Assembly (NCBI GenBank): GCA_003135135.1
Contig: PLDK01000025.1
Coordinates: 106,376 to 170,375 of the forward strand
From: Deltaproteobacteria bacterium
GTDB lineage: Bacteria; Desulfobacterota; Binatia; Binatales; Binataceae
Direction: 5' to 3'
DNA: 64,000 nt
The position numbers were made by a program, and so were the translations under genes. Shown here piece by piece: positions 1 through 64,000 of the stretch. The notes under the pieces are model-generated. The model made no database searches. It saw only the letters and a program-made list of their open reading frames with translations, and was not told where the DNA came from. Numbering within the stretch: the first letter of the stretch is position 1; each line of letters begins with the position of its first letter.

Positions 1-743
1 TCTGCTTTGCGCAGCTCACCCGGTCGCACGAAAACCAGCGGCGCCAATCGCAGAGCACACTTCACGACGAACGTCCCTTGATAGCCGTTGATCGTGCGCA
101 TCAGAGCCGCCACTTCCGTAGGCTTGGTCAGCGAAGCATGGTGCTCTTCGCGTACTGGCGGCAGAGCGCCGCGCAGGTCGGCGCTAGGGTCCCGCGATGC
201 CTTCCCCGTGGCAATCGCGTACCTGAATACCTGCCCGATGATCTGTTTGATGCGATGAGCGGTTTCCAGCGCGCCGCGCGTTTCGACGCGGCGCAACACT
301 TCGAGTAGCTGGACCGCGCTAATCTCCGCGATTGGCTTCGCACCGATCCATGGGAATACGTCGCGCTCCAACCGCCGGATAACCGTCGCTGCGTGAGTCG
401 GCGCCCATCCAGCGGAAAACTTCTCGAACCACACTCGCGACAGCGCCTCGAACAGATCCTTGTCGGCTTTCAGCGCAGCCTTTTGCGCTTGGCGTTCGGC
501 GCTCGGGTCGATTCCCGAGGCCAGAAGCTTGCGCGCCTCATCGCGCCGATCGCGTGCCTGGGCCAAGCTGACATCGGGGTAGATGCCCAAGCTGATTGTT
601 TTCTCCTTCCCCGCGAACCGATATTTGAGCCGCCACCACCTGCCGCCTCTCGCTGTCACGATGATAAAGAGCCCGCGGTTGTCGTGAATCTTGTAAGCCT
701 TCTCTGCCGCTTTCGCGTTCCTGAGCTTCACGTCCTGAAGCAT
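1..743 (-). CDS. Tyrosine integrase, P4/CP4-57-like, N-terminal part only (rest lies left of the window)
   Basis: Absent from the ORF track because it runs off the edge. My minus-strand translation from ATG 743 reads MLQDVKLRNAKAAEKAYKIHDNRGLFIIVTARGGRWWRLKYRFAGKEKTISLGIYPDVSLAQARDRRDEARKLLASGIDPS...FPWIGAKPIAEISAVQLLEVLRRVETRGALETAHRIKQ. This is the typical DUF4102 arm-binding plus SAM-like core N-terminus of P4-type integrases. It lies directly downstream of the ssrA 3' end on the same strand. Confidence 0.85.
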   Translation of the reverse strand, partial: MLQDVKLRNAKAAEKAYKIHDNRGLFIIVTARGGRWWRLKYRFAGKEKTISLGIYPDVSLAQARDRRDEARKLLASGIDPSAERQAQKAALKADKDLFEALSRVWFEKFSAGWAPTHAATVIRRLERDVFPWIGAKPIAEISAVQLLEVLRRVETRGALETAHRIKQIIGQVFRYAIATGKASRDPSADLRGALPPVREEHHASLTKPTEVAALMRTINGYQGTFVVKCALRLAPLVFVRPGELRKA

Positions 744-915
744 TGGGGTAACTCCTTCAAGCGCCTTGGTTTTTAGTCCAGCTACCCCCGTTTTTACCCC
801 GCGGTTACCCCGGATGTCAAGGCACGATACTGGACAATTTTGGATATCGTCTCAACAAAAAGCCTTTAATCTACATGGCTTTCTGCACGCACTTGTACCC
901 GGTGAGACGTAAATG

Positions 916-1273
916 TGGTGGAGGCGGGGGGAATTGAACCCCCGTCCGAAGGCCTTCCGGCGACGGCCACTACACGCTTAGTCTGCGAATTTTAGCTCGC
1001 GTCAGGAACGCCCACAGACGGGCTTTCCTGACGCCAGCCGGCTGAATTTTCGGGACGCCGCCCAGCCGGTGAACTGCGGTTCCCTAGCCCACTAAATGAC
1101 GCCCCGACCCGCTGCCATGGGCGAGCAGCGGCGGGACGCTAGCGGCCCTTAGGCCGCCAGAGCGTAACCGTTATTGTCTGCGGGTAAATTTCGCAGTCTG
1201 CCAGTTTTACGGGTCGACAGCACCCGGCGTGCGACCATGGCCATATTGTCTTCGTCGAATCCAGTTCGCCCCC
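916..1273 (-). ncRNA. ssrA: tmRNA (SsrA), tag peptide ADNNGYALAA
   Basis: The minus strand reads 5'-GGGGGCGAACTGGATTCGACG...GCAGACAATAACGGTTACGCTCTGGCGGCCTAA...TTCGGACGGGGGTTCAATTCCCCCCGCCTCCACCA-3'. It has a canonical tRNA-like acceptor/T-arm, a CCA end and an internal tag ORF ending YALAA-stop. It is adjacent to smpB. Confidence 0.93.
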
Positions 1274-1407: not shown

Positions 1408-1899
1408 ATGGCACGCGACACCCGCAATGGCAAACCATCCGGCGACGGATTCGATCTGGTCGCCGATAACCGCAAGGCGCGGCATGATTTCTTCATCGAG
1501 GAGACGCTCGAGGCCGGCCTCGCGCTCACCGGCACGGAGGTCAAGTCGCTGCGCGCGCATCGCGCAAATCTGCGCGACAGTTACGCGCGCATAAAAAACG
1601 GCGAAGCGTTCCTCGAGAGCGTCCATATCGGCGCCTATGCTCCTGCGGGCCAATTCAGCCACAAGGAAACTCGCGCGCGAAAACTCCTGATGCATCGCCG
1701 CGAGATCGATCGCCTGTGGGGCCGCGTGCGCGAGAAGGGCTATTCGATCGTCCCGCTGAAACTATACTTCAAAAACGGCCGCGCCAAGGTTGAACTGGGG
1801 CTCGCCAAGGGCAAGCACTCCTACGACAAACGCGACGCGATCGCGCGCAAGACCTCCGATCGCGAAATCGAGCGCGCCTTGAAAGGACGCAACCGCTAG
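1408..1899 (+). CDS. smpB: SsrA-binding protein SmpB
   Basis: 163 aa. Contains NRKARHDFFIEETLEAGLALTGTEVKSLR...LLMHRREIDRL...GYSIVPLKLYFKNGRAKVELGLAKGK, the hallmark SmpB sequence. Confidence 0.95.
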   Translation: MARDTRNGKPSGDGFDLVADNRKARHDFFIEETLEAGLALTGTEVKSLRAHRANLRDSYARIKNGEAFLESVHIGAYAPAGQFSHKETRARKLLMHRREIDRLWGRVREKGYSIVPLKLYFKNGRAKVELGLAKGKHSYDKRDAIARKTSDREIERALKGRNR

Positions 1900-2756
1900 C
1901 GCGCCTGCGCGCTCGTCGCGAGTTGACTCAATTCCGCAACCAGGTTCTGGAAGCTATCGAGGCTCGCCGATAGTTCCGCCGGAGTAGCGCCGATGCTTCC
2001 CAGCACGCGCGCGGCGGTATCGTGAAATCGCGCCGGTTTGATCGCGAATCGATGCGACTGGGCGAACGCGCCTTTCTCATTGAGAAAAAATCTGCGATTC
2101 AGCGCATAGAGCACCAGCGTCATGAAGCCCGCCGCGCGAAACAGGCATCCGGCGACGTACATCACGTCTACGCGCTCGGCTGGCTTCGCCGCGATCGAAA
2201 TTTCGAATTCCGCGTCAAAGAGATGCTTGGCTACGGCAGCAGCCCGAAATTTTTCGGGATATTCGCGTACCAGGGACTTGAGTTCGGCGATCGCACCCGC
2301 CGGATCAAAAAGCGGACGGCATACATGAACTTCGCCCGCGTAAATCTGCATGTGAAATCCGAGCGGAGGACCAAGCTGATAAATGCTGCGAGGGCGTCCG
2401 GCGATGCAGTCCTCGATCGCCTCGCGCACCGCGCCAATTTCACGGTAAATGAAATCGACGTGATGGCAGCGAATCTCGAGCCATCCGCCGCCGTTCACCG
2501 CCGCCCCCCATTGGCCAAACGAAGTCACCAATCCATCAAGATGACGATCGTCCAGTTCCTGCGCAGCCGCTCCCAGAGCCGCCGTCGAGAATGGATGGGC
2601 GCCGTCGTAATAGATTCCGAGATCGATATCCGATCGTTCGTCCGCGTTACCGCGTGCGCGTGATCCGCCAAGCACGATCGCGGCTACACCGTCGATCTTC
2701 GCGACGTGGCCCGCGACCAGACTGAGTATTTCTTCGATTTCGCTCCGACTAGCCAC
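1896..2756 (-). CDS. Nucleotidyltransferase (pol-beta fold) domain protein
   Basis: 286 aa with the G-S-x9-D-x-D NTase motif (LGGSRARGNADERSDIDLGIYY). It converges on smpB with a 4-nt stop overlap. Confidence 0.7.
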   Translation of the reverse strand: MASRSEIEEILSLVAGHVAKIDGVAAIVLGGSRARGNADERSDIDLGIYYDGAHPFSTAALGAAAQELDDRHLDGLVTSFGQWGAAVNGGGWLEIRCHHVDFIYREIGAVREAIEDCIAGRPRSIYQLGPPLGFHMQIYAGEVHVCRPLFDPAGAIAELKSLVREYPEKFRAAAVAKHLFDAEFEISIAAKPAERVDVMYVAGCLFRAAGFMTLVLYALNRRFFLNEKGAFAQSHRFAIKPARFHDTAARVLGSIGATPAELSASLDSFQNLVAELSQLATSAQAR

Positions 2757-34706: not shown

Positions 34707-35816
34707 TTACACCTTGATCAATCCATCGACGTTGCCGGTGGAACGTGGACGTCCTGGGAACACTCGATCGATCTGCGCATCCGAAAACTGCATGTGCGAT
34801 CGCAAGACGGCCGCGATCGGCTCGCGGAAGTCGGTCGTGATCGCCAGGTCGCGCTCCTGGTATAGGCTCCCCGGCGACAGACCCGGCCACTTTCCATAAA
34901 CTTTTCCGCCCTTCACCGGCCCGCCCATCACCCACATCACGTTGCCGTGCCCGTGATCGGTTCCGCCGTTGCCGTTCTCGTGCATGGTGCGGCCGAAGTC
35001 CGAAATCACCAGGATGACGGTGTCCTGGTAGCTCGGCCCAAGCTGCTTGGCCAGGCTCGCCAGTCCTTCGCCGAGCGGCTTGAGATGTCCCGCGAGCTGG
35101 CCGTTGGCGGCGCCTTCGCTGACATGCGTATCCCAGCCGCCAAGGGCCATGAATGCGACGCGAATCGTGGGATCGCGGCCAATCAGACGCGCCAGTCTGT
35201 CGGTGTCGTCGGAGAAACCCTGCGGCGAGGGCGCGCCGCCATTGGCCTGCGCCATGTCTTGCGTCAGTTCGCTCATCAGGCGCATCCGTGCCTCGCGTCC
35301 ATCGCGATAGGCGCGGCTGATCGAATCGTTGCCTGCGTACAGCCGATCGAAGGCCGCTTCGATCACCGGCCGGTCCATCGGCATCGGCCGCTCCGCCGCC
35401 CGACCGAGTGCGATATTCGCGACAGGAGCCTTGCCGCTTAGAATCCGCGGCAGCGTCGGACCGAGACTTAACGCCTCGGTCGGTCCATGCGTACCCGGAA
35501 TCGCCGCCAGCGCTCGATTCAGCCATCCATCCTGCGTCGACTTGATGCCCGGCGTACCACTCTCCATGAAATCCTGCGCGTCGAAATGCGATCGCGTCGG
35601 ATCCGGCGAGCCGCATGCATGCACGAACGCCAGCGTGCCGTCGCGCCATTGGCTCTCCAGCGGCGCGAGCGCGGGATGCAACCCGAAATGGCCGTCGAGA
35701 TCGATCAACCCGCCGTCCGCGCCCATGCGTCCGATCGCGATTGTCGGGCGCGCGTCGTAGTACGCCGGCTCGCCATGCGGCACGACCACGTTCAGGCCGT
35801 CAACCGCGCCGCCCAT
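34707..35816 (-). CDS. DUF1501 (sulfatase-fold) protein; its Tat signal peptide is encoded out of frame upstream (35792-35953)
   Basis: GGAVDGLNVVVPHGEP...GWDTH...SDFGRT...GTDHGHG are typical of DUF1501. See the finding. Confidence 0.8.
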   Translation of the reverse strand: MGGAVDGLNVVVPHGEPAYYDARPTIAIGRMGADGGLIDLDGHFGLHPALAPLESQWRDGTLAFVHACGSPDPTRSHFDAQDFMESGTPGIKSTQDGWLNRALAAIPGTHGPTEALSLGPTLPRILSGKAPVANIALGRAAERPMPMDRPVIEAAFDRLYAGNDSISRAYRDGREARMRLMSELTQDMAQANGGAPSPQGFSDDTDRLARLIGRDPTIRVAFMALGGWDTHVSEGAANGQLAGHLKPLGEGLASLAKQLGPSYQDTVILVISDFGRTMHENGNGGTDHGHGNVMWVMGGPVKGGKVYGKWPGLSPGSLYQERDLAITTDFREPIAAVLRSHMQFSDAQIDRVFPGRPRSTGNVDGLIKV

Positions 35817-35962
35817 GCGTGCGGGCTCAGCAGCACGATTCCCGACGCCGACAGAATCGCCGCGCGGCGGATGAACGCCCGCCTGCTAAAAGAAGTCGCC
35901 GGGCCGGGACTGCACGCCGCGCATCCATCGATAGGTTGGAGTTTTTTTCCCATTTTAAACTC

Positions 35963-37636
35963 TCAGCGCTTCATGAACTCGGGACTGCCGAGAATCAGCG
36001 GCGCGCGAAGTTGCGTCGGCGACGCCTCCACGGCGCTGGCCGTTGACGGTGAAAAATAATCGCCGAGTGTAGCCGCAAGCTGCGCGGGATCGGGTGGTGT
36101 CATCTTGGGTCCGTGCGGCCCGGTGTCGAACTTGATGTTCACTTTGCCGCCACCATTCCTGGGGACCGCCGCCGGCTCGCGGCGCATCGCACCGCCGCCC
36201 GCGTCTTCCTCGAACGGCGGATTTTCCAGCGGCAGATTGCCCGAGCCGAGCGCCGTGGCAAAGCTGAGCCGCGTCATCATCGCGCCGGGATTGAGCCACG
36301 CGTCCTGCGTGTTGGCGTAGCCGTTGGGCGTCTGACATCCGTACAGCGGCATCCCGAGAATCTGCATCGTGCCGTACAGTGGCCGGTAGTTGCGGATCGG
36401 CACGCCCGTCGCGCGCACGCACGAGACCACGTACTCGTAGGGCGTTTTAAATTTGGCGCCGTAGTATCGGGGGTCCCGGAATTCCGCGCTCGTGAGCATC
36501 GTCTCGAGCACCGCACGAATCTCGCCGTCGGTCGCGAGGTACCGATCCGCAATCCGGCTCACCAGCGCTTTGGGTGGATCGTCGGCGACGAAGTACTGCG
36601 CAAGCTTGAAGCTCAGATGCTTCGCCGTGGCGGCACTGGTCGCCAGGATGTCCAGCGCATGCTCGCCTTCGGCGATTCCGCCGCCTTCGATTTCGTGCCC
36701 CAAAAAATTCTTGCTCGAGAAATCATGGCGCTGGGCGTCGAAGTTAAAGCCGCTCGGATCGACCGGCGCCGCGCCCGGCCGCCTGAAGTTTTGCCGACGC
36801 CGCATGAATGGAAAAAATCCGGCCATCCCGGCGCCTTGCATGCCCGCGGCGCCGGGCCTGCGATGTCCGCCGCCACCACCACCGCCGCCCCTGGGAAGTC
36901 CCGATCCCGTCAGAATATGCGCGAGCGCGATTACGTCGGCCTGCGAGTAGCCGCCGTTGACGCCCAGCGTATGCAGTTCCATCAACTCGCGCGCGTAGTT
37001 CTCGTTTATTCCTTCGAACTTGCCCTTCGAGCCGGCGCTGCCGGGCGCAGTGTTCTGCCAGTTGTCGAGGTAGAAAAGCATCGCCGGATGATGCGCGATC
37101 GCGCCCAGGAGCGTGCGGAACTTGCCCATCGTATGCGGCCGAATCGCAGTCTCCTCGAACACACCCGTCCAGATGTTGTCCAGCCCCTTGCCGGCGAAGA
37201 TGTTGAAGTGGTTGAACCAGAACGCGGTCATCACTTCCTGCAATTGCCGCGGCCCTTCGATCGCGCGCATCATCCGCGCCTCGACCGCCTCGCGCATCAC
37301 GATCCGCTGCTGGATTCTTAAGTCTTTGGTCGCGTCCTTTATCGCCACCTTGTCGCCGCCGCTCTCGGCCCTGGCGTCCCGGCGCGCCTCCATGATCGGC
37401 CGCTGATATTCGACGAACAACGCGATCGGAGACATGTGGATCGTGCGATATTGGTTGACGCGCTCGGTCAGATCGCCTGGAATCGCTATCGACTCGGGAT
37501 GCAGTTGCTCCTGCACGTAGCGTTCAGGTCCCATCGCGCTCACGCGCTCGAAGTCGCCCGGCCGCGGACCGAACCCGAGCCGGTTCAGGACGTGCAGAAT
37601 CCGGTCCCGTTTTGATTCTTCGGCTGATTCCACCAC
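35963..37636 (-). CDS. DUF1800 protein
   Basis: 557 aa. HVLNRLGFGPRPGD...FWFNHFN...NENYARELMELHTLGV are hallmarks of DUF1800. This is the classic pairing with DUF1501 downstream. Confidence 0.8.
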   Translation of the reverse strand: MVESAEESKRDRILHVLNRLGFGPRPGDFERVSAMGPERYVQEQLHPESIAIPGDLTERVNQYRTIHMSPIALFVEYQRPIMEARRDARAESGGDKVAIKDATKDLRIQQRIVMREAVEARMMRAIEGPRQLQEVMTAFWFNHFNIFAGKGLDNIWTGVFEETAIRPHTMGKFRTLLGAIAHHPAMLFYLDNWQNTAPGSAGSKGKFEGINENYARELMELHTLGVNGGYSQADVIALAHILTGSGLPRGGGGGGGGHRRPGAAGMQGAGMAGFFPFMRRRQNFRRPGAAPVDPSGFNFDAQRHDFSSKNFLGHEIEGGGIAEGEHALDILATSAATAKHLSFKLAQYFVADDPPKALVSRIADRYLATDGEIRAVLETMLTSAEFRDPRYYGAKFKTPYEYVVSCVRATGVPIRNYRPLYGTMQILGMPLYGCQTPNGYANTQDAWLNPGAMMTRLSFATALGSGNLPLENPPFEEDAGGGAMRREPAAVPRNGGGKVNIKFDTGPHGPKMTPPDPAQLAATLGDYFSPSTASAVEASPTQLRAPLILGSPEFMKR

Positions 37637-41738: not shown

Positions 41739-41773
41739 GGGGGCTGGGAGCAATCCCAGCCCCCAAATTTTTT
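41739..41773 (+). terminator. Rho-independent terminator
   Basis: GGGGGCTGGGA-gcaa-TCCCAGCCCCC (perfect 11-bp stem) followed by AAATTTTTT. Confidence 0.75.
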
Positions 41774-41989
41774 AGCATCGATTGTTACCCATGCTCCTGA
41801 AGTCATATTCGCCGATCACTGGGAAGGGATTTTGCCGGTTGATGCGGCTTCATCAAGCAACCGCTGCAAATGACCGGCAGGAGAATCGCGCCCCGCGTGG
41901 CCATCGTGGCCGGTATTCAAAGCGCAGGCTGGCGCAACGCTCGTATGCGGCGGCTTGAACTCCGAGGGGAACAAACGCTCGCCAGCCGC

Positions 41990-42463
41990 TCACTGATCGA
42001 AGCTGCCGGGACTGCTCGCCAGCACGCGAAATCGCATGCAGACGGTTGCACAACCACACCTCGAGTCGCAATTTCCGTAGATCTCGCCCGGTGACTTGAC
42101 GACCAGATCGAGCGGGCGCGTCTTGCCGGGCACGAGTTCTACGGCGTCCTTCATCCCAAGAATCCAGAAGCTGTGGAGCACGTCGGCGGAAGCAAGCTCG
42201 AGCCGAACGTTGGTAGCGCTTGGAACGCGCAAAACATCGCTGGTCTTGACGCCCACAGAGGGATAATCGAATTCCCACCACCACTGATGCGCGACCACTC
42301 GGACCGTAAGCGTAGGCCCAGTCACGCCAGCACCGAGGGTTCGACCTAGAAGGATCGCTCCGGCACAGATGCATGCCAGACCTATCATGGCTCCGACCAA
42401 TGGCCTCGACGATTTCACGCGTTCACTTCTTAAAGCGTACTGCCTGGTTGCCGCTGTCGCCAC
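41990..42463 (-). CDS. Orphan cytochrome-oxidase-subunit-II-type cupredoxin with modified CuA-like site, single TM anchor
   Basis: 157 aa with HQWWWEFDYP, DVLHSFWILG and GNCDSRCGCATVCM. There are exactly 34 residues between the His and the first Cys, and Met at +7 after the second Cys, as in CuA. Confidence 0.7.
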   Translation of the reverse strand: MATAATRQYALRSERVKSSRPLVGAMIGLACICAGAILLGRTLGAGVTGPTLTVRVVAHQWWWEFDYPSVGVKTSDVLRVPSATNVRLELASADVLHSFWILGMKDAVELVPGKTRPLDLVVKSPGEIYGNCDSRCGCATVCMRFRVLASSPGSFDQ

Positions 42464-43118
42464 GCGTCACCGGCTCGCGCGCCGCGGTTCGCTCCACGTC
42501 ACTCACGACCCGATCCGGCTCGGCCTTTTGACCTAAGTACTGAAGCAAGGCACGACCGTTCGCATCGACCAGGAAGAATTCGAGAACGTGATCGACCGTT
42601 CCATCGGGCTCACGCTGTCGAATCACGTTGAATCGCGCCATCTCGTCGTCGACCTGTTTGGGCGTTCCAGTCAGGAACAGCCAGCCGCTAACGTCGGCGC
42701 CCTGCTTGTTCGCATAGGCGAGAAGCTGCGCCGGATGATCGTGTTCGGGATCGACCGTGATCGACACGATGCGGGCCTCGGTTCCGAGCTTGGGTCCGAG
42801 TCGATTCGCGATCTGTTTCATCTGGGCCGTGAGCAGAAGACACGGTCCGGGACAGTTGGTGTAAATGAAATCGAACAGCACCGGTTTCCCCTTCAGCGAG
42901 GCCAGCGAAACGTTGCGGCCATGCTGATCGACCAACGTGATGTCGGGTAAGCAGTCGGAGGTATTGATGACCGCAAATCCTCCGCGCTCCCCGATATCTT
43001 CGGCCGGCCGGCGGCAACCAATCAGAGTCACCACGCCCACCAAAACAACCAGCATCGTCAGGCAAAGGCTTCTACTGAGACTCTGCTTCTTGAGATTAAG
43101 GCTTAGCGTTGGGGTCAC
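42423..43118 (-). CDS. SCO1/SenC family copper chaperone (lipoprotein)
   Basis: Lipobox LIGC, CxxxC motif YTNCPGPC, DPEHD and the conserved VDH. Confidence 0.85.
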   Translation of the reverse strand: MTPTLSLNLKKQSLSRSLCLTMLVVLVGVVTLIGCRRPAEDIGERGGFAVINTSDCLPDITLVDQHGRNVSLASLKGKPVLFDFIYTNCPGPCLLLTAQMKQIANRLGPKLGTEARIVSITVDPEHDHPAQLLAYANKQGADVSGWLFLTGTPKQVDDEMARFNVIRQREPDGTVDHVLEFFLVDANGRALLQYLGQKAEPDRVVSDVERTAAREPVTRGDSGNQAVRFKK

Positions 43119-43656
43119 CTGGATTCCCTGAAGTCTGCGTCGCGGGTTTCTCCGTGAGCAGCGGCAGCACCACGTCCGATAGACTCTTCTCGGTAACCGG
43201 CGTTTGGTCGGGTGTCAGCTTCGCGCGGATGACTCCGCTGCGATCTACAACGAATGTGACGGGCAGAACGTCGGGCGAACCGAAATCGTTGACTTTGGCG
43301 TCATCCAGCACCGCCGCCGGATAGCTGTATGATTGCATGACCTTGGTCACATCGGACCGATCGTGCGGGCGGTCGGTGCTGAGACCTATCATCTCGAGTC
43401 CCTGGGCGTGATACCGCCGATAGAACGTGTCGAGAGCTGGCATTTCCTCGCGGCAGGGCGGACACCAAGTGGCCCAGAAGTTGACGATTACGACTTTCCC
43501 GTGCTGCGCACTTAGATCGAATGCCTGACCATCCAGTTCGGGCACCTCCAGCGCCGGCGCCGCGTTACCAACACTCGCGGAGGCAAACGCCATTGCAGCC
43601 ACACATAGGATCATGCCGACTCCTGCTGCAGCAGGCCACAATGTCGTTCGCCTCAC
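43096..43656 (-). CDS. TlpA-family periplasmic thiol:disulfide oxidoreductase
   Basis: Signal peptide and the redox motif NFWATWCPPCREEMP. Confidence 0.85.
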   Translation of the reverse strand: MRRTTLWPAAAGVGMILCVAAMAFASASVGNAAPALEVPELDGQAFDLSAQHGKVVIVNFWATWCPPCREEMPALDTFYRRYHAQGLEMIGLSTDRPHDRSDVTKVMQSYSYPAAVLDDAKVNDFGSPDVLPVTFVVDRSGVIRAKLTPDQTPVTEKSLSDVVLPLLTEKPATQTSGNPGDPNAKP

Positions 43657-43672
43657 GATTGCTTTCCTCGCT

Positions 43673-44782
43673 TCAGAAGCTGTAACTCAGAATCAGCTTG
43701 GCTGCATAGGATGCGGTCAGCTGATAACCCCTCATGTTTTGAAAAAATGGGACTTCAACGTCTGCGTAAGCCCGGACGACCCCGACTTTGGTCTCGATTC
43801 CCGGAGCAACGATAAAACGGGTGTAGCCGCTGTCGGCGGGATCTGCGGCCGTCCCTGTATCCCGCGTCCGATCAGAGGCAAGAAAGGTGAGCATAGGAGC
43901 GAGTTCCTTGAGAAAACCAACTTTGCCGAAGTTGTAGAAGCTTCCCACTGCACCATCGACTTCCCTGCCGGGCGTGTAGTGGTCCTGTTCCAAGAGCGGC
44001 AAATTGTAGTTGACCTGCACAAAGTAGTTGAAGGGGCGCTCCCCGAACGTCAACGGCAACGTCCCCAACTGCTTCGGTATTGTTCCCAGGTGGTAAACCC
44101 CCATAAGCAGATCAGTGCTTCCCGTGCCAATCTGCGTGTCGCGATCGAAGTTTGGATAATGCCAATCGCCGCTCGGGACCTTGACCCCCATCAGGAGTCC
44201 GGTCGACATGTCCTCCGACAGACCCGTATACATCCCCTGGATCCGGATATCGCCTATGGAGTTGTTCTGGTACCAATTGATGTCGGCGTTGTTGCCCTCA
44301 TAAGCACCCTTGTATTGGCGCACCCAATAGGGCACCTCGAGCATCGCTCCCCAGTTCCGATTGAACATGTACTGTGCGCCAAATTCCATGAAGTCTGTTC
44401 GGATGTACTTGTCGTTGTTGTAGGAGCCGGAGGCTGGCTGGGTCGCGTGGTAGTTTATGTACTGATCCATGAATTCATATTGTGTCCACACTTGGCCTCC
44501 GGACCCCTCAGGAAACAGTGCTGCGGTATCTACCTCGAAGACACCGCACCCGCATGCACAGGCCCAGCTCAGACCGGGCGTTAGACCTACGAGCAGAAGG
44601 GCAGGTAGCAAAAAGAGTCGGGTAACTTTGGCGGCGCCGGGCAGAGAGATAGCCACTCCCGCCAAAGGGCCAAGCTCAGAAATCCGTCGCATAGAACATC
44701 TCCCAGCGGACATCTTGCGATGCGCCGCTTGCCTGAAAGAGAGACCATCGCGCCGCGACATTTTGCGGCGCCGGGAACCCAT
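43673..44782 (-). CDS. Outer-membrane beta-barrel protein (transporter/MetA-phenol-pathway-like), mature N-terminus CACGCG
   Basis: Signal peptide ...LLLVGLTPGLSWA, then CACGCGVFEV. It has alternating beta-strand patterns, is rich in aromatics and ends in SYSF. The likely start is an internal Met (e.g. 44692). Confidence 0.6.
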   Translation of the reverse strand: MGSRRRKMSRRDGLSFRQAAHRKMSAGRCSMRRISELGPLAGVAISLPGAAKVTRLFLLPALLLVGLTPGLSWACACGCGVFEVDTAALFPEGSGGQVWTQYEFMDQYINYHATQPASGSYNNDKYIRTDFMEFGAQYMFNRNWGAMLEVPYWVRQYKGAYEGNNADINWYQNNSIGDIRIQGMYTGLSEDMSTGLLMGVKVPSGDWHYPNFDRDTQIGTGSTDLLMGVYHLGTIPKQLGTLPLTFGERPFNYFVQVNYNLPLLEQDHYTPGREVDGAVGSFYNFGKVGFLKELAPMLTFLASDRTRDTGTAADPADSGYTRFIVAPGIETKVGVVRAYADVEVPFFQNMRGYQLTASYAAKLILSYSF

Positions 44783-44809
44783 ATCGGGAACGCCGTCGAA
44801 CGAAGGTTC

Positions 44810-45166
44810 TTAGGCGGAGCGCTTTGGCGGCGGAGTGTCGGGAGCGACCTTAACATCGACTAGTCGCACTGCGTTCTTCACGGCAGTCGAGCCCAGAGCG
44901 CGGAGAACAAACTCCGGCAAGACCATCGCGGGGCGTGCGAGCAAGGTGTTCGACACGCGGTCGAACATTTGAATCGGCTGGCAAATGTTGATGGTCAATT
45001 CCGGCCGGCTCGGTCCGGAGACGACGACCAGGCCGGGATTCGAGGGAGCGCTGGCCAACAACATGACGATGGCCACGATTAGACTCAGGTCCCGCAAGTC
45101 CGCCTTTGAAAACAACTGCCTCATGCCGCAGCGACCAGTTCTAAAGCAATCCCCGCTCGCGTTCAA
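44810..45166 (-). CDS. Hypothetical small membrane-anchored protein
   Basis: 118 aa (or about 104 aa from MRQLFS) with one hydrophobic helix, LSLIVAIVMLLASA. No family was recognised. It is called only because it fits tightly between zip and the OMP gene on the same strand. Confidence 0.4.
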   Translation of the reverse strand: MNASGDCFRTGRCGMRQLFSKADLRDLSLIVAIVMLLASAPSNPGLVVVSGPSRPELTINICQPIQMFDRVSNTLLARPAMVLPEFVLRALGSTAVKNAVRLVDVKVAPDTPPPKRSA

Positions 45167-45189
45167 GATCCACCGGCTTTATGTTCATT

Positions 45190-45936
45190 TCATCCGCGTA
45201 GCAAGCGGGTAATCAGAAAAATTATGAGCATCCCCATACAGGTGGCGACGCCAACCAATGGAGAGTCATGTTCGCGAGCTTCCGGCAGCAGATCCGAGGC
45301 GCCGATGTAAAGAAAAGAACCGGCGAAAAACGCAAGCAGCCACGGCAGGAGTCCCGCCCTCAAATTGAACATCAGCGTCGAGGCCGCACCGAGGACCGGC
45401 GTCAACATATCCACTATCAGCCAGAAAATGGCGCGTCTGGGCGAATTTCCATGCGCAAGAACGACCGTCACGGTGTTCAGTCCGTCGCTGAAATCATGCG
45501 CGATTATGCCAAATGCAATTAAGAGTCCCATCTCGACGCTCGTCTGGAAGCCGACACCGATTGCAACGCCGTCCAGAAAACTGTGAAACGCCAGGCCGGC
45601 CGCGGACATCGCGCCAAGCTCCATCTCATGAGATGGCGCCAAGTGAGGATGTTCGCGAGCACGGTGCATCGCCGTGTAACGTTCAAGTCCGAAGAAGGCA
45701 AGGAATCCAAGCGCAGTGATCGGCATGTACGATGCGCCGTGAGGAAAAGCGAAGACTTCCGGCAGTATGTCGAACAGCGCCACCGCCAACACCGCGCCGG
45801 AACTGAAGCCGAGCAGCAAATGAAGCCGGTCGCGCAAGCGCATGGCCGCCATGCCGCCCAACCCGGTGGAGAAGAGCGTGACTAGAGCAAGCAGTATTGG
45901 CGCGAATCGCATCGGTGGATTTTGCCCGGAGTTCAA
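45190..45936 (-). CDS. ZIP family divalent-metal transporter (ZupT-like)
   Basis: 248 aa, polytopic, with HSFLDGVAIG and IIAHDFSDGLN motifs. Confidence 0.85.
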   Translation of the reverse strand: MNSGQNPPMRFAPILLALVTLFSTGLGGMAAMRLRDRLHLLLGFSSGAVLAVALFDILPEVFAFPHGASYMPITALGFLAFFGLERYTAMHRAREHPHLAPSHEMELGAMSAAGLAFHSFLDGVAIGVGFQTSVEMGLLIAFGIIAHDFSDGLNTVTVVLAHGNSPRRAIFWLIVDMLTPVLGAASTLMFNLRAGLLPWLLAFFAGSFLYIGASDLLPEAREHDSPLVGVATCMGMLIIFLITRLLRG

Positions 45937-46002: not shown

Positions 46003-46686
46003 ATGAAGACGGGGAAACATACGCGCCATGCACCCGGAGAAACCACACCGATGACGTCACGAACGAAGTGGATGCTAACGCTCTTGCTTGCCGGCGGCGT
46101 TTTATTCGCTCTGACGCCGATCGGCGTTTCGGCCGAGGTCGAGGGCAACGACCGCGCCACTGCGGTGTTTTCGGGCGGCTGTTTCTGGGGCGTGGACGGC
46201 GTTTTCAAGCATGTGAAGGGGGTGTCCAAAGTTGTTTCCGGATACGCGGGAGGAGCTGCCGACACCGCGAACTACGAAACCGTCAGCACGGGAACAACGG
46301 GGCATGCTGAGTCGGTGCAGGTCACTTACGATCCTTCGAAGGTTTCGTACGACGATCTGTTGAAAGTATTTTTTTTCGTCGCTCACGATCCGACCGAGTT
46401 GAATCGACAGGGCCCGGATTCAGGAACTCAATATCGGTCCTCGATTTTCTATGAGAACGGCGGTCAAAAGAAGATGGCCGATGATTACATCGCCCAACTC
46501 GAACGGAAACATTCATTCCTCAAGCCAATCGTAACCAAGGTAGCTCCGCTCACCGCTTTCTATCCGGCCGAAGACTATCATCAAAACTATCTGGCTCTGC
46601 ACCCGGATAATCCCTACATCGTCGTCAACGATATGCCGAAACTCGAACGGCTCCGGCAAGACTTCCCCGGCCTGTATCAGCCATAA
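46003..46686 (+). CDS. msrA: Peptide-methionine (S)-S-oxide reductase with N-terminal signal peptide
   Basis: GGCFWG active site and ...GHAESVQVTYDP...QGPDSGTQYRS. MTSRTKWMLTLLLAGGVLFALTPIGVSA looks like a Sec signal, so the start is possibly 46051. Confidence 0.9.
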   Translation: MKTGKHTRHAPGETTPMTSRTKWMLTLLLAGGVLFALTPIGVSAEVEGNDRATAVFSGGCFWGVDGVFKHVKGVSKVVSGYAGGAADTANYETVSTGTTGHAESVQVTYDPSKVSYDDLLKVFFFVAHDPTELNRQGPDSGTQYRSSIFYENGGQKKMADDYIAQLERKHSFLKPIVTKVAPLTAFYPAEDYHQNYLALHPDNPYIVVNDMPKLERLRQDFPGLYQP

Positions 46687-62400: not shown

Positions 62401-64000
62401 CGGCGGATTAATCGCTATTTCCTTCGTGATCCTGTGGATGCTGTCGCCGGCCGTCGCGCGATGGGCAAGCCTTCCGCCGCGAATCGAGGGCACCAAGCCG
62501 CTCTCGCTCGCCGACACGAAGGCGCTTCGACTGAGCGCGCGGCGCACGTGGCGTTTTTTCGAGAAGTTCGTGACGGCGGAAGACAACATGCTGCCGCCCG
62601 ACAATTTTCAGGAAGACCCCAAGCCCGTGCTGGCTCATCGGACTTCGCCCACCAACCTTGGACTGTATCTGCTCTCGGTCATCGCGGCTCACGATTTCGG
62701 CTGGATCGGAACCCATGAAGCCGTCGACCGGCTGGGCACGACGCTCGACACGATGAAGCGCCTGGAGCAGTTCCGCGGGCATTTCTACAACTGGTACGCC
62801 ACGCGCGATCTGCGGCCGCTGGACCCAAGGTACGTATCGTCGGTGGACAGCGGCAATCTCGCGGGGCATCTGATCGCGCTGGGCAACGCATGCCGCGAGA
62901 TAATCGCGCGGCCGGTTGTGGGCAGGCAATGGCTCAAGGGAATCGAAGACTCGATCGCACTCGTTCGCGAGGCGCTTGGCCCGCTGGCCGCCGACCGGCG
63001 AAGCCTCACTGTCACTCCAAAGCAGCTCGAGGAAGCGCTCGACGCCATGGCGCCGCTTATCCTGTCGGAACCGCAATCCGTGGTGGAACTCACCGCGTGG
63101 CTGGCGGAACTCGAGATTCAGAGCGATTCGATCAGTGACATTGCGCGCGCGTTGACCTTGGAGCGCGCCGACTCCGCCGCCGCCGACGTGCTCGCATGGG
63201 CTGAAGCACTCCGAGCATCCATCCGCAGTCATCGACGCGACGTCGAATTGCTCAAGCCGTGGCCAACTCGCGGTGCTCACGACGCGACTTTCGACGATCC
63301 CGCATCCCAACTCCATTCGATACCGGCTTTGGGCGATCTGCCGGACCTGTACGATGAGGCGATCGGCGGCCTGAAGCGCCGGATCGACGAGCGCCCGGCT
63401 GATGCCGGCGCCGGCGCGATTGGCGCCGTGCCGGGATCAGCCGACCCGGCGCTCGATGCGCTTGCCAACGCCCGCGATTCGGCCAAATCGCTCGAGCGGC
63501 GACTGACCGGCATGGCCGCAACCGCGGGCAAGATGCTCGACGCGATGAAGTTCGACTTCCTGTTCGATCCCGCGCGCCAACTGCTGTCGATTGGCTACCG
63601 GGTCACGGACGGGAGCCTCGATCCCAACTGCTACGACTTGCTTGCTTCCGAGGCGCGGCTGGCGAGTTTTGTCGCAATCGCAAAGGGGGAAGTACCCGTC
63701 AAGCACTGGTTTCGGCTGGGGCGCGCCATGACACCGGTCGATCGCGGCTCGGCGTTGATTTCGTGGTCGGGATCGATGTTCGAGTACCTGATGCCGTCGC
63801 TGGTGATGCGCGCGCCGCCCGGGAGCCTGCTCGAGCAAACCAGTCGGCTGATTGTTCGCCGGCAGATGAAGTACGGCGCCGAGCTTGGAATGCCGTGGGG
63901 TATCTCGGAATCCGCGTACAACGCGCGCGACCTCGAGCTCACCTATCAGTACTCGAATTTCGGGGTGCCCGGACTCGGGCTGAAGCGCGGGCTTAGCGAG
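59468..64000 (+). CDS. Cyclic beta-1,2-glucan synthase (NdvB/Cgs-like, GT84 + downstream domains), 5' 4.5 kb only
   Basis: Absent from the track because there is no stop before the window end. I translated three stretches of the frame containing 59468: the 5' end (PIRAELFSVERLEQHGETLA, EWLVDNFHVVEEQIREIRDDLP); about 60.6-61.9 kb (VMPTLLTTRDEIDEQIERLEVHYL, YVITVDADTRIP, LQPRI, GKGIYDVDMF, LSHDLFEG, QHRWARGDWQL); and the last 40 nt (FGVPGLGLKRGLSE). The first canonical start after the in-frame TAG at 59411 is TTG 59468. The rest of the frame is inferred open because no plus-strand track ORF in this region lies in it. Confidence 0.88.
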   Translation, partial: MNFVFFRAPKKPAASFAHIDEPIRAELFSVERLEQHGETLAVAQRVTAYPGRGRPMAARVRDNARVLLAAYRGIAAAIREERAITPGAEWLVDNFHVVEEQIREIRDDLPRGFYRQLPKLADGPLEGYPRVFGIAWAYVAHTDSHFDPQTLAKFVQAYQRVQPLTIGELWAVAITLRIVLVENLRRLAEQMGHSRAERRHADLLANRLLGSNGRDAEPVEAVFKDLDKSPLSAAFAVEMVQRLRDQDPKVTPALRWLDQRLLAQGTTADEIVRQVHQGQGAMNVTVRNVITSMRLMSAVDWADFFESVSAVDAVLRAASDFAAMDFATRDRYRHAIEELARGSGHTEIEVAQSAIDSARGAASEVPNGDGARARREHHPGYYLISEGRHSLEAQLGFRAPVRDWVARANAAAGIAGYLGTIAVVTTIIVAGAMLAIADAQIGEWTRLILAMLAIIPATDAAVAIVNRGVTTFIGPAIIPALELHDGVPPSLRTMVVMPTLLTTRDEIDEQIERLEVHYLASSDGELYFAILSDWTDSATETAPGDDDLLGAATAGIARLNQRHGPGPGGKRFLLLHRRRIWDEAEGVWMGWERKRGKLHELNRLLRGATDTTFIASDRHPPAVPDGVRYVITVDADTRIPRGAAKRMVGKMAHPLNAPRFDKQSGRVVEGHAVLQPRITAALPTRREGSVFQRVFSSTRGMDPYAFAVSDVYQDLLDEGSYSGKGIYDVDMFEDAMAGRVPDNTLLSHDLFEGTFARSGLVSDIELVEEFPSRYDVAAARQHRWARGDWQLIPWILGHGSSAAAASTAPRDARSSIPPLGRWKMIDNLRRTLSAPTLLLALMAGWRLPESAALIWTGFIVATIATAPMLPFLTGIIPRRRDISKRSHIRAVVTDLAVGLAQLAMMLTLLAHQAWLMSDAISRTLYRLYVSHRLMLEWTTAAQAKRTSRLDVRGFYAMMAGGAVLGAAAAIFVALAGRGGGLIAISFVILWMLSPAVARWASLPPRIEGTKPLSLADTKALRLSARRTWRFFEKFVTAEDNMLPPDNFQEDPKPVLAHRTSPTNLGLYLLSVIAAHDFGWIGTHEAVDRLGTTLDTMKRLEQFRGHFYNWYATRDLRPLDPRYVSSVDSGNLAGHLIALGNACREIIARPVVGRQWLKGIEDSIALVREALGPLAADRRSLTVTPKQLEEALDAMAPLILSEPQSVVELTAWLAELEIQSDSISDIARALTLERADSAAADVLAWAEALRASIRSHRRDVELLKPWPTRGAHDATFDDPASQLHSIPALGDLPDLYDEAIGGLKRRIDERPADAGAGAIGAVPGSADPALDALANARDSAKSLERRLTGMAATAGKMLDAMKFDFLFDPARQLLSIGYRVTDGSLDPNCYDLLASEARLASFVAIAKGEVPVKHWFRLGRAMTPVDRGSALISWSGSMFEYLMPSLVMRAPPGSLLEQTSRLIVRRQMKYGAELGMPWGISESAYNARDLELTYQYSNFGVPGLGLKRGLSE

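Follow-up and report, generated by a model that had tools for sequence, protein, structure and literature searches.

The TlpA-ScoI-(PcuC)-CoxB pathway of Bradyrhizobium diazoefficiens combines a membrane-associated WCxxC reductase, a Sco protein with CxxxC and His, and a membrane-anchored COX2-type client, and its canonical chemistry includes a four-cysteine ScoI-Cu-CoxB intermediate (PMC6669012). Copper-responsive leader peptides are the second point of reference. CutF (Rhodobacter capsulatus cutFOG) combines a Sec signal and a CxxxC motif with a proline-rich C-terminus and, when copper is present, opens an intergenic stem-loop that hides cutO's Shine-Dalgarno sequence (SD) (PMC9973294), and CruR (Bp2923) of Bordetella pertussis, with a CXXC motif and an RAPP arrest motif 45 residues on, controls Rho-dependent termination in a 162-nt spacer, its target being a copper-uptake TonB receptor (PMC9426467); DUF2946 proteins are experimentally shown regulatory nascent peptides (PMC9973294, PMC9426467). 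At the outer membrane, COG4313/PF13557 (Phenol_MetA_deg) channels have a short segment ahead of strand 1, which in Pput2725 consists of about 14 residues that fold into the lumen and occlude it (PMC4493636), and PmoD (PMC6189053) and AcoP (PMC10804444) are membrane-anchored cupredoxin-fold proteins found outside oxidase or N2O reductase, beside copper-handling genes. Here we describe a gene cluster on the minus strand, at 41990-45936, of a 64,000-nt stretch of Binataceae DNA (the window, meaning the whole stretch analyzed), the building blocks of which are all of known kinds: a Sco protein, a TlpA-like reductase, a cupredoxin, a COG4313 barrel and a CutF/CruR-style leader. The source is an uncultured soil bacterium, placed in Candidatus Binatus/Binataceae by the names that near-identical homologues and loci bear.

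Set against the Bradyrhizobium pathway, the cluster shares the membrane-associated WCxxC reductase, the Sco protein with CxxxC and His, and a membrane-anchored COX2-type client with the bridging Cys pair, first His and Met. It differs in that the client is not an oxidase subunit and has no subunit I nearby, has lost the Mg-site Glu and the second His, and carries two extra invariant Cys, one transmembrane (TM) helix and a novel Cys/His tail, and in that the module is without PcuC/PCuAC and is joined with an outer-membrane barrel and a leader open reading frame (ORF). The client resembles PmoD and AcoP in anchor, fold and genomic company; PmoD, however, is not COX2-derived and has its CuA-like site at a homodimer interface, whereas the window protein is a clear CoxB paralogue, and the Cys4-His-Met loop of its family is described in neither. 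In the literature we found no account of a CoxB paralogue with such a rewritten loop, of COG4313 barrels with a Cys cluster or of these genes together, a combination that the initial annotation of the window had likewise not recognized as a described system. We regard it as an even call that the module, conserved in Binataceae, is a copper-thiolate trafficking system with an oxidase-independent, CoxB-derived client, and the metal handled would most likely be copper, as Cu(I). This reading draws on observations: the domains identified, invariant motifs, synteny, loci set apart from COX1 and recurring copper-chaperone neighbors.

The conserved module and its CoxB-derived cupredoxin

Starting from the longest ORFs at 41990-45936, with domains assigned by Pfam and NCBIfam hidden Markov model (HMM) scans, we arrived at the following features.

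45190-45936, minus strand: ZIP-family permease of 248 aa as the longest ORF (240 aa, from ATG 45912, in the source-contig call)
45138-45166, minus strand: promoter-like block, a conserved -35/-10-like block ahead of the small ORF
44810-45124, minus strand: small ORF of 104 aa with 252 homologues, candidate copper-sensing arrest/leader peptide
44699-44771, minus strand: spacer elements (GC hairpin, pyrimidine tract, barrel SD), by fold prediction
43673-44692, minus strand: outer-membrane beta-barrel precursor, 339 aa, with a CACGC motif (AF2 fold)
43096-43656, minus strand: TlpA/ResA-like periplasmic thioredoxin-fold reductase, 186 aa, WCPPC (Pfam)
42423-43118, minus strand: Sco copper chaperone of 231 aa (or 210 aa with an internal start; Pfam SCO1-SenC)
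41990-42418, minus strand: CoxB-derived cupredoxin, truncated allele (Pfam COX2, family alignment)
41816-41989, minus strand: cut-off in-frame cupredoxin tail, 57 codons plus stop (family alignment, DNA reading)
41739-41764, no strand assigned: GC hairpin, predicted bidirectional terminator (promoter/terminator scan)

The six co-directional minus-strand ORFs of the initial annotation are borne out by the ORF list, and its family calls (ZIP, TlpA-type redoxin, Sco and COX2 cupredoxin) by Pfam HMMs. Its gaps and overlaps of 23/27/16/-23/-41 hold for the longest ORFs and not for homology-supported starts: because the starts of the small ORF, barrel and cupredoxin were corrected to ATG 45124, ATG 44692 and GTG 42418, the spacings along the cluster become 65, 117, 16, about -23 and 4 nt, with the small ORF and the barrel set apart by a conserved, hairpin-containing 117-nt spacer. 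The 157-aa cupredoxin proved a mis-model, as the family is about 200 aa long and the window gene runs for 142 codons to an in-frame TGA. The absence from the window of any oxidase subunit I/III, PCuAC or nos gene was confirmed: COX1 was not found there by tblastn with the native Binatus subunit I/III fusion (825 aa, from locus L078), and the COX1, COX3, PCuAC and Nos Pfam families are absent from the source-contig gene calls that tile the whole window. Neither the 118-aa nor the 369-aa longest-ORF form of the small protein and the barrel matches a Pfam or NCBIfam family, and apart from the terminator at 41739-41764 a general promoter/terminator scan yielded nothing beyond shuffle expectation.

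Synteny of the module was read from 34 orthologous, non-redundant loci by means of tblastn and ORF clustering. A five-gene unit of small ORF, barrel, TlpA-like gene, Sco and cupredoxin is conserved in about 30 species-level Binataceae genomes, and the order small, barrel, TlpA-like, (extra genes), Sco, cupredoxin holds without exception. The cupredoxin is present at 34/34 loci and Sco, directly upstream of it and often as 2-3 paralogues, at 33/34; barrel and TlpA-like gene are each found at 28/34, and the small ORF, directly upstream of the barrel, at 27/34. Conservation of gene order independently of ctaD/coxA, a check proposed at the outset, is thus seen in about 30 species, never beside COX1. 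Accessory genes on the same strand recur at these loci and are not in the window: a 129-aa lipoprotein of no family (20/34), a rhodanese (16/34), MauE/DoxX (15/34), an FtrD-like Cys4 protein (PF10080; 14/34) and a CYCXC (seleno)protein (NF041379 above cutoff; 9/34). CopC-CopD is found in a few Binataceae module loci, and the fullest locus, L092, has about 17 such genes in a row, among them three Sco, a YHS-like protein and CopCD. Upstream of CopC-CopD in L002 (10947-11855), and also in L010, L011 and L092, lies a Pfam-less secreted protein of about 302 aa with a predicted mature N-terminus ARA↓HGVVGDY (the arrow marks the cleavage site) that starts with His; its sequence resembles an outer-membrane barrel, and the protein may represent another type of barrel, one with His in place of Cys at the N-terminus.

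The cupredoxin carries a COX2 domain (PF00116, 46.6 bits, cutoff 22, 3.9e-12) and stays under the cutoff of the CoxB equivalog TIGR02866 (92.7 bits, cutoff 147.7). Its nearest solved structure, by PDB sequence match, is Thermus caa3 subunit II (2yev_B, 1e-23), whose loop CAELCGASHARM aligns to the window loop CDSRCGCATVCM. By alignment with the family (168 homologue matches, about 200 aa), the window protein starts MKSSR, at GTG 42418, 4 nt past the Sco stop, and carries a single TM anchor, AHQWWWEFDYP, HSFW and then the loop. Family-wide, the canonical CuA loop CxExCGxxHxxM has become CD[SA]xCGCxxVCM, strictly invariant in about 170 proteins; the His of HSFW, four Cys, the Met and AHQWWWEFDYP are the invariant residues of the alignment. 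Compared with CuA, the first His, both bridging Cys and the Met are retained and two invariant Cys are gained, the second His is Thr in the window (Thr, Ala, Lys or Asn across the family), the loop Glu is Ser in the window (Ser or Ala in the family), and the window loop thus lacks the full ligand set H...C-x-E-x-C-G-x-x-H-x-x-M. In aa3 oxidases the side chain of the loop Glu ligates the Mg site at the subunit I/II interface, and its replacement by Ser or Ala fits loss of the partnership with subunit I. The family further has a conserved Cys/His-bearing C-terminal tail of about 58 aa (W-AARERL-x-P-x-EFKPP...P-A-C-A-L-N...LQRLLD), which the window encodes as FPSEFKPP...APACALN...GHDGHAG...LQRLLD, with a Cys that is invariant at family level. 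An Fe-S cluster in the cupredoxin was considered and judged unlikely, the protein being Sec-exported and membrane-anchored and its sequence showing no twin-arginine motif.

A cupredoxin locus scan limited to a single genome from each species found 80 loci. None of the 36 loci with the rewritten loop (CD[SA]xCGC) has an adjacent COX1, whereas all canonical-loop loci (CxxxCGxxHxxM) have COX1 300-700 nt downstream; in L014 an unrelated COX1, 43% identical, lies about 7 kb from the rewritten-loop gene. Several metagenome-assembled genomes hold both kinds of CoxB, among them Ca. Binatus sp. SPRUCE 224, with the orphan in L004 and the canonical copy in L078, where fused CtaD/E comes after a caa3-type CoxB-cytochrome c. 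Orphan and host CoxB domain share about 45% identity, so the orphan arose by duplication within the lineage. Of two signs of an ordinary coxB derivative named beforehand, neither constant adjacency to an oxidase nor, at family level, a decaying coxB fragment with non-conserved Cys was found: the 36 orthologous loci stand apart from COX1 and the loop Cys are invariant. The stand-alone cupredoxin with an altered ligand set of the initial annotation can therefore be described as an oxidase-independent CoxB paralogue with a ligand set that is altered yet invariant.

Sco matches PF02630 (SCO1-SenC) at 97.8 bits (6.3e-28) and has a lipobox-like LIGC, the CxxxC motif as CPGPC, DPEHD and the downstream VDH histidine, with CPGPC, DPEHD and VDH conserved over about 45 aligned Sco copies. 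The reductase matches AhpC-TSA (1e-24), Redoxin (5e-22) and also Thioredoxin in Pfam, has a hydrophobic N-terminal signal or anchor and a WCPPC that is invariant in 28 loci, and is best called TlpA/ResA-like, with scores under the cutoffs of both NF047696 (TlpA; 71.4 bits, cutoff 230) and the ResA subfamily NF002854 (92.5 bits, cutoff 170). Its gene comes directly after the barrel in Binataceae and in Ralstonia. The cupredoxin was initially cast as the TlpA/Sco client; since the TlpA-like gene pairs as tightly with the barrel, the cupredoxin need not be its sole client.

The ZIP permease carries the ZIP domain (PF02535, 68.3 bits, 8.6e-19) and is not ZupT (55 against the equivalog, cutoff 252). 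It occurs in 7/34 loci, those of the closest relatives only (L004-L009 and the window), and at L007 it flanks the module on its other side and in the opposite orientation. Because a promoter-like block sits in the 65-nt spacer between ZIP and the small ORF, ZIP is a lineage-specific neighbor outside the conserved unit. Its place as a conserved member was therefore given up, and with it the claim that the system spans all envelope compartments, which rested on ZIP; the single transcript proposed for the cluster likewise lacks support for ZIP, since the block that separates it from the small ORF is conserved with and without ZIP. Transcriptional read-through from ZIP into the module is possible. 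Divergent from ZIP, at 46003-46686 (plus strand), is an MsrA gene (PF01625, 8e-60) with an apparent N-terminal signal peptide; the protein is probably exported and would then depend on a thioredoxin-like reductant in the periplasm, for which the adjacent TlpA-like protein is one example. Between the longest ORFs of ZIP and MsrA lie 66 nt, and this short spacer holds a conserved palindrome, CGCGGCGTACCGCG.

The Cys-cluster barrel and the leader-like ORF

Translation of the barrel starts at ATG 44692 behind a GGGAG ribosome-binding site, and the precursor comprises a signal peptide (residues 1-44), a mature N-terminus CACGCGVFEV (nt 44560-44531) and a C-terminal Phe. The initially proposed Cys triplet at the mature N-terminus is thus found again, as CACGCG after an AxA-type cleavage site, and A↓CACGC[GS][VI]F[ED]V is invariant in 25 species. 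In an alignment-based AF2 model (pTM 0.70) the protein is all-beta, with about 12 strands over residues 65-338, and the best Foldseek match is the COG4313 channel Pput2725 (4rl8_A, E 2.9e-8, TM-score 0.74 on the target), followed by FapF. Both Pput2725 and FapF are 12-stranded barrels, and AF2 and Foldseek together predict this fold for the window protein. Residues 45-64, 20 aa that start with the Cys triplet, precede strand 1 and are modeled at pLDDT below 55. The 12-stranded prediction and the short segment before strand 1 are what the window barrel has in common with characterized COG4313/PF13557 members; unlike these, it has an invariant Cys cluster (CxCxC/CxxCxC) and stays below Pfam thresholds (no passing match, a weak OMP_b-brl at 0.073), and Cys-cluster barrels often keep company with Sco, CusF, redoxin and copper uptake, not with aromatic catabolism. 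The distant family member P0365 does pass PF13557 (23.4, cutoff 22), so that a wide branch of the COG4313 superfamily, one without a name, is distinguished by the Cys cluster. By exhaustive profile search the barrel family comprises 951 clusters at 50% identity; CxCxC follows right after the signal peptide in 29/48 full-length representatives and CxC in 9 more, including a CS[ST]CGC subgroup, and a cluster look-up of diverse barrels returned no names and no taxa. Compared with L004 (7700-8791), the window barrel (43673-44692) is about 70% identical (dS about 1.15), against 91-97% (dS about 0.1) for the flanking genes, which suggests that in one lineage the allele was replaced or a paralogous barrel exchanged with it.

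The genomic company of more distant barrels was read in P0365-like barrels from peat and soil metagenomes (clade 2, 80 loci). A 126-aa TM protein with PCxxC and a C-terminal PPxPPPR is encoded directly upstream of the barrel in 38/53 loci with enough sequence, and Sco, a CusF-Sco fusion, a TlpA-like protein, CopCD or a small CxxC protein directly downstream in 28/42; the CusF-Sco fusion (CusF_Ec 3e-16) alone accounts for 25/42. Cytochrome bd genes are present in a few clade-2 loci, and the remaining loci end the operon after the barrel. The fusion, 317 aa, was seen downstream of Cys-cluster barrels in L095/L096 and about 25 metagenomic loci (L098-L175), some of which also have genes for a cytochrome bd oxidase and one or two more Sco proteins; to our knowledge, a CusF-Sco chaperone fusion has not been described. 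In a plasmid-collection search with the barrel, 129/129 matches were Ralstonia megaplasmids. The one inspected, Ralstonia solanacearum CP047137.1, encodes a barrel homologue with mature N-terminus CATCGC in the order "copper uptake system-associated protein" (NF033672, 128 bits), TonB-dependent receptor, DUF2946 (PF11162, 51 bits), barrel, redoxin (FWATWCEPC), the last three at 1061047-1063190, and thus has the order small, barrel, redoxin in common with the window. The copper or thiophilic-metal function first proposed for the cluster is backed by Sco paralogues, CopCD and the YHS-like protein in Binataceae, by CusF-Sco in clade 2 and by the Ralstonia copper-uptake cluster.

The small ORF runs for 104 aa from ATG 45124, a length kept by nearly all of its 252 homologues. 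An N-terminal signal-anchor covers about residues 13-27; the single invariant Cys is Cys48, within C-x-P-x-Q, and residues 95-101 read P-D-T-P-P-P-K, in which P95, T97, P98, P99 and P100 are invariant; the distance from Cys48 to PPP98-100 is 50 aa, and AF2 predicts no fold (pLDDT 46.6). First taken for an unrecognized anchored part of a relay, the protein looks instead like a regulatory leader peptide of the CutF/CruR type, with a Sec signal, a proline-rich motif about 45 aa past the Cys, a position at the operon head and a long spacer behind it. CutF and CruR are alike in this architecture, in the Cys-proline spacing (50 here, 45 in CruR), in the lack of a predicted stable fold and in the long structured spacer (117 nt in the window, 162 nt in cruR), and in Ralstonia a true DUF2946 takes the same place upstream of the homologous barrel. 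They differ in having CXXC or CxxxC where the window ORF has one Cys, in RAPP as against PPPK, and in the gene that follows, here a COG4313-type barrel rather than a TonB receptor or multicopper oxidase; in clade 2 the analogous 126-aa protein does carry a PCxxC. PF11162 is unmatched and hhalign probabilities are below 2%: 0.1% for the small-ORF family against Ralstonia DUF2946 (the clade-2 126-aa family likewise being below 1%), and 1.6% for the small-ORF family against the clade-2 family, where the C-terminal PxPPP[KR] alone aligned. At such values no homology is claimed. With one Cys and no detectable DUF2946 homology, a CutF/CruR-like mode of working is proposed and family membership is not assigned.

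The promoter-like block consists of a -35 TTGAAC (45166-45161), a 17-nt spacer and a -10 TAGAAC (45143-45138), about 14 nt before the small-ORF ATG, which has no SD ahead of it. CTTGAAC-N17-TAGAA is kept in 13 aligned loci with and without ZIP, similarity breaking off upstream, and from this conservation we infer that it is the module's own sigma-70-like promoter. It came to light in a sigma-54 (-24/-12) scan upstream of the small ORF, which gave no convincing conserved site. In one subclade (L001, L016, L020 and L021) a GAF-sigma54-activator of about 550 aa and a stand-alone response regulator are encoded some 1-3 kb upstream of the small ORF. The spacer between small ORF and barrel, 117 nt in the window and 104-120 nt in most loci, contains a GC hairpin at 44771-44750 (GCGCCGC/GCGGCGC) and a pyrimidine tract at 44742-44737 (UCUCUU) that can pair with the barrel SD, GGGAGA at 44704-44699. 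The predicted unpaired probability of this SD is 0.00 in the window and about 0.24 as a median over loci, and in a 15-sequence alignment 84.8% of cells of the two spacer helices pair, against 44-58% with the partners slid.

Proposed working, the window allele and rival readings

In the working we propose, the module promoter would drive the 104-aa exported, leader-like ORF with its signal-anchor, Cys48 and C-terminal PPPK, and this ORF, by analogy with CutF and CruR, would couple periplasmic or nascent-chain copper sensing to the downstream genes by way of ribosome pausing and the structured 117-nt spacer, with its GC hairpin and SD-masking pyrimidine tract. In the outer membrane, the predicted 12-stranded COG4313-type barrel could use its N-terminal CACGC segment as a thiolate-lined gate or binding site, the Cys triplet acting as a plug by analogy with Pput2725. 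The TlpA/ResA-like reductase would hold the envelope thiols (barrel triplet, Sco, cupredoxin loop) in the reduced state, and the lipoprotein Sco would bind copper and deliver it to, or exchange it with, the membrane-anchored CoxB paralogue. The latter would be a copper-thiolate acceptor, serving as buffer, relay or redox centre and not as an oxidase subunit; loss of the second His and the Glu, gain of two Cys and the Cys/His tail fit such a role. In the window lineage, ZIP has come to lie beside the module, the 129-aa lipoprotein (c8), rhodanese and MauE genes have been lost, and the cupredoxin has gained its TGA and shows relaxed constraint. More tentatively, and with doubt that both halves hold together, Cys-cluster COG4313 barrels with a Cys-plus-polyproline leader may be widespread copper-regulated outer-membrane copper channels and the Binataceae CoxB paralogue may hold, within a CuA scaffold, a copper-thiolate centre not seen before (Cys4-His-Met plus Cys/His tail).

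What weighs against the trafficking reading begins with the window's own cupredoxin. An in-frame TGA at 41992-41990 (minus strand) replaces Trp143, near-invariant in the family and Trp in all 36 orthologous loci; past it the tail stays in frame without further lesions to the stop at 41816. The strong terminator hairpin at 41739-41764 (11 bp, GC, flanked by T and A runs), which separates the tail from a convergent class II ribonucleotide reductase (RNR) gene, is placed 3' of this tail stop and not of the premature TGA. Since the truncated product is found on 21 contigs from at least 8 independent JGI samples, always in the ZIP...RNR context, the TGA is a real allele and not an assembly error, fixed or common in the natural population, which SPRUCE and Danish peat samples contain. 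Selenocysteine or other recoding was ruled out, homologues having Trp at this position and other operon genes stopping with TGA. With the nearest relative, L004, as reference, the ratio of non-synonymous to synonymous substitution (dN/dS) of the cupredoxin body is 0.69 (Sd 6.5, Nd 13.5), as compared with 0.16 for ZIP (0.12-0.26; purifying selection), 0.19 for the TlpA-like gene, 0.20 for the barrel and 0.33 each for the small ORF and Sco; the tail behind the TGA has 5 non-synonymous and 1 synonymous change, in the direction of relaxation with counts too small to decide. In the sister species Ca. Binatus soli (L009) the loop is degenerate, CDSGCACATGSM, and the tail Cys is Trp. Small as the counts are, they suggest that the cupredoxin is relaxing or decaying in this genome while the other genes are maintained, which speaks against it as the sole client of the TlpA-like protein and Sco; the remaining module genes evidently do not depend here on an intact full-length cupredoxin. 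That the cupredoxin is no decaying fragment holds at family level; in the window genome, with its population-wide TGA and relaxed constraint, it appears to be decaying.

It is possible, if not our expectation, that the cupredoxin is here a pseudogene or hypomorph, that the cluster works, if at all, without it, and that the "six-gene system" is an artefact of adjacency, a reading compatible with the others. Besides the TGA and the substitution counts, the GTG start (ATG in orthologues), the state of L009 and the absence of the c8 lipoprotein, rhodanese and MauE genes from the ZIP-bearing subclade that includes the window speak for it; yet the sequence before the TGA still codes for the whole cupredoxin domain and every loop ligand, low-level UGA read-through by tRNA-Trp into the lesion-free tail is possible, the counts are too small for significance, and the other five genes are clearly maintained. 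Decay of the window and L009 cupredoxins beside a TlpA-like gene and Sco under purifying selection would also fit ordinary cytochrome-oxidase copper assembly in trans, with TlpA-like and Sco proteins maturing a caa3 CoxB encoded elsewhere and the orphan a decoy, a CuA copper reservoir or a dispensable paralogue. Neither Sco nor a TlpA-like gene lies within 10 kb to either side of the canonical Binataceae caa3 operons (L056-L083), orphan-bearing genomes also have a canonical CoxB (L004/L078, L005/L071, L006/L070, L009/L063, L010/L083 and L012/L065), and in other bacteria Sco and tlpA are commonly unlinked from cox genes (PMC6669012). We nevertheless consider assembly in trans unlikely: adjacency of cupredoxin and Sco at 33/34 loci and a loop invariant in about 170 proteins speak for partners dedicated to each other, the module's barrel and redoxin reappear in Ralstonia and in clade 2 without aa3-type oxidase context, loss of the Mg-site Glu and second His makes faithful mimicry of a CuA substrate impossible, and the same genomes hold further Sco paralogues.

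The other contrary points concern metal, barrel and leader. PCuAC, which in the canonical pathway is required to resolve ScoI-Cu-CoxB, is not in the window by Pfam calls. About one third of clade-2 barrels have no chaperone neighbor, and the low-GC CxCxC barrel P0382 comes after a sodium:solute symporter, in surroundings that hold no copper genes, so that the copper link of the barrels cannot be claimed as universal. The small ORF has no PF11162 (DUF2946) match in Pfam at E<=0.1 and, with a single Cys, no copper-binding CXXC/CxxxC; spacer folding, at z = -2.5 in the window, gives weak z-scores in most loci, and the spacer helices, although pairing in register, show no covariation beyond shuffles in the 15 sequences. 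Rhodanese (16/34), MauE/DoxX (15), CYCXC (9) and FtrD-like Cys4 (14) neighbors suit thiol or sulfur chemistry as well as copper. With a cupredoxin that loses a His ligand and gains two Cys, a ZIP gene adjoining the module in the window, a divergently encoded exported MsrA and barrel P0382 unlinked to copper genes, they could mark a thiol, persulfide or other-metal module in which the four-Cys loop binds Zn, Fe or Fe-S, or forms redox disulfides or persulfides, serviced by TlpA-like, rhodanese, MauE/DoxX and CYCXC proteins, with ZIP supplying Zn or Fe. This we hold to be decidedly unlikely, as Sco is the most tightly linked partner, CusF, CopC, CopD, YHS and the curated "copper uptake system-associated" family recur around homologous barrels, Sec export and a membrane anchor without a Tat motif argue against a pre-assembled Fe-S cluster, and ZIP is a late and peripheral addition.

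Other window features and significance

The remaining features of the window lie away from the copper module. An Rfam scan of the window recovered tmRNA alone, at 916-1273 (197 bits) with smpB adjacent, and a phage-type integrase, seen on the source contig, begins at about window position 743 and extends past the window start; integrase and tmRNA/smpB (window 1-1273) are arranged as is classic for a prophage or genomic island that has integrated at ssrA. A 98-nt "tRNA-Glu" called by ARAGORN at 1822-1919 (minus strand) overlaps the smpB/nucleotidyltransferase coding region, has no Rfam match and is a probable false positive. A DUF1800/DUF1501 pair followed by an Amidohydro_3 gene, 34707-37636 (minus strand), is a conserved pair unrelated to the module. 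From 59468 (plus strand) a very large ORF extends past the window end at 64000; on the source contig it encodes 2,933 aa with Glycoamylase, GH94 and cyclic beta-1,2-glucan synthase-type domains.

The way in which copper passes the outer membrane of Gram-negative bacteria, and its periplasmic routing to clients other than respiratory oxidases, are still poorly understood. The window copy is a damaged exemplar, and the intact orthologues P0001 or L004 and the Ralstonia cluster are the better experimental entry points. If our reading of the barrels is true, they would constitute a large unnamed family with a thiolate-lined N-terminus, open to genetics through its homologues in cultivable Ralstonia solanacearum, and would, on the more tentative reading, provide a TonB-independent copper route across the outer membrane that feeds Sco/CusF and is kept reduced by a dedicated TlpA-like reductase. 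The small ORF would then stand for a second, sequence-unrelated class of Cys-plus-polyproline leader peptides like CutF and CruR, and the cupredoxin for a natural redesign of the CuA site (His to Thr, two Cys added), of interest for cupredoxin loop engineering. For the annotation of genomes it follows that Sco/TlpA pairs are not automatically oxidase-assembly factors.

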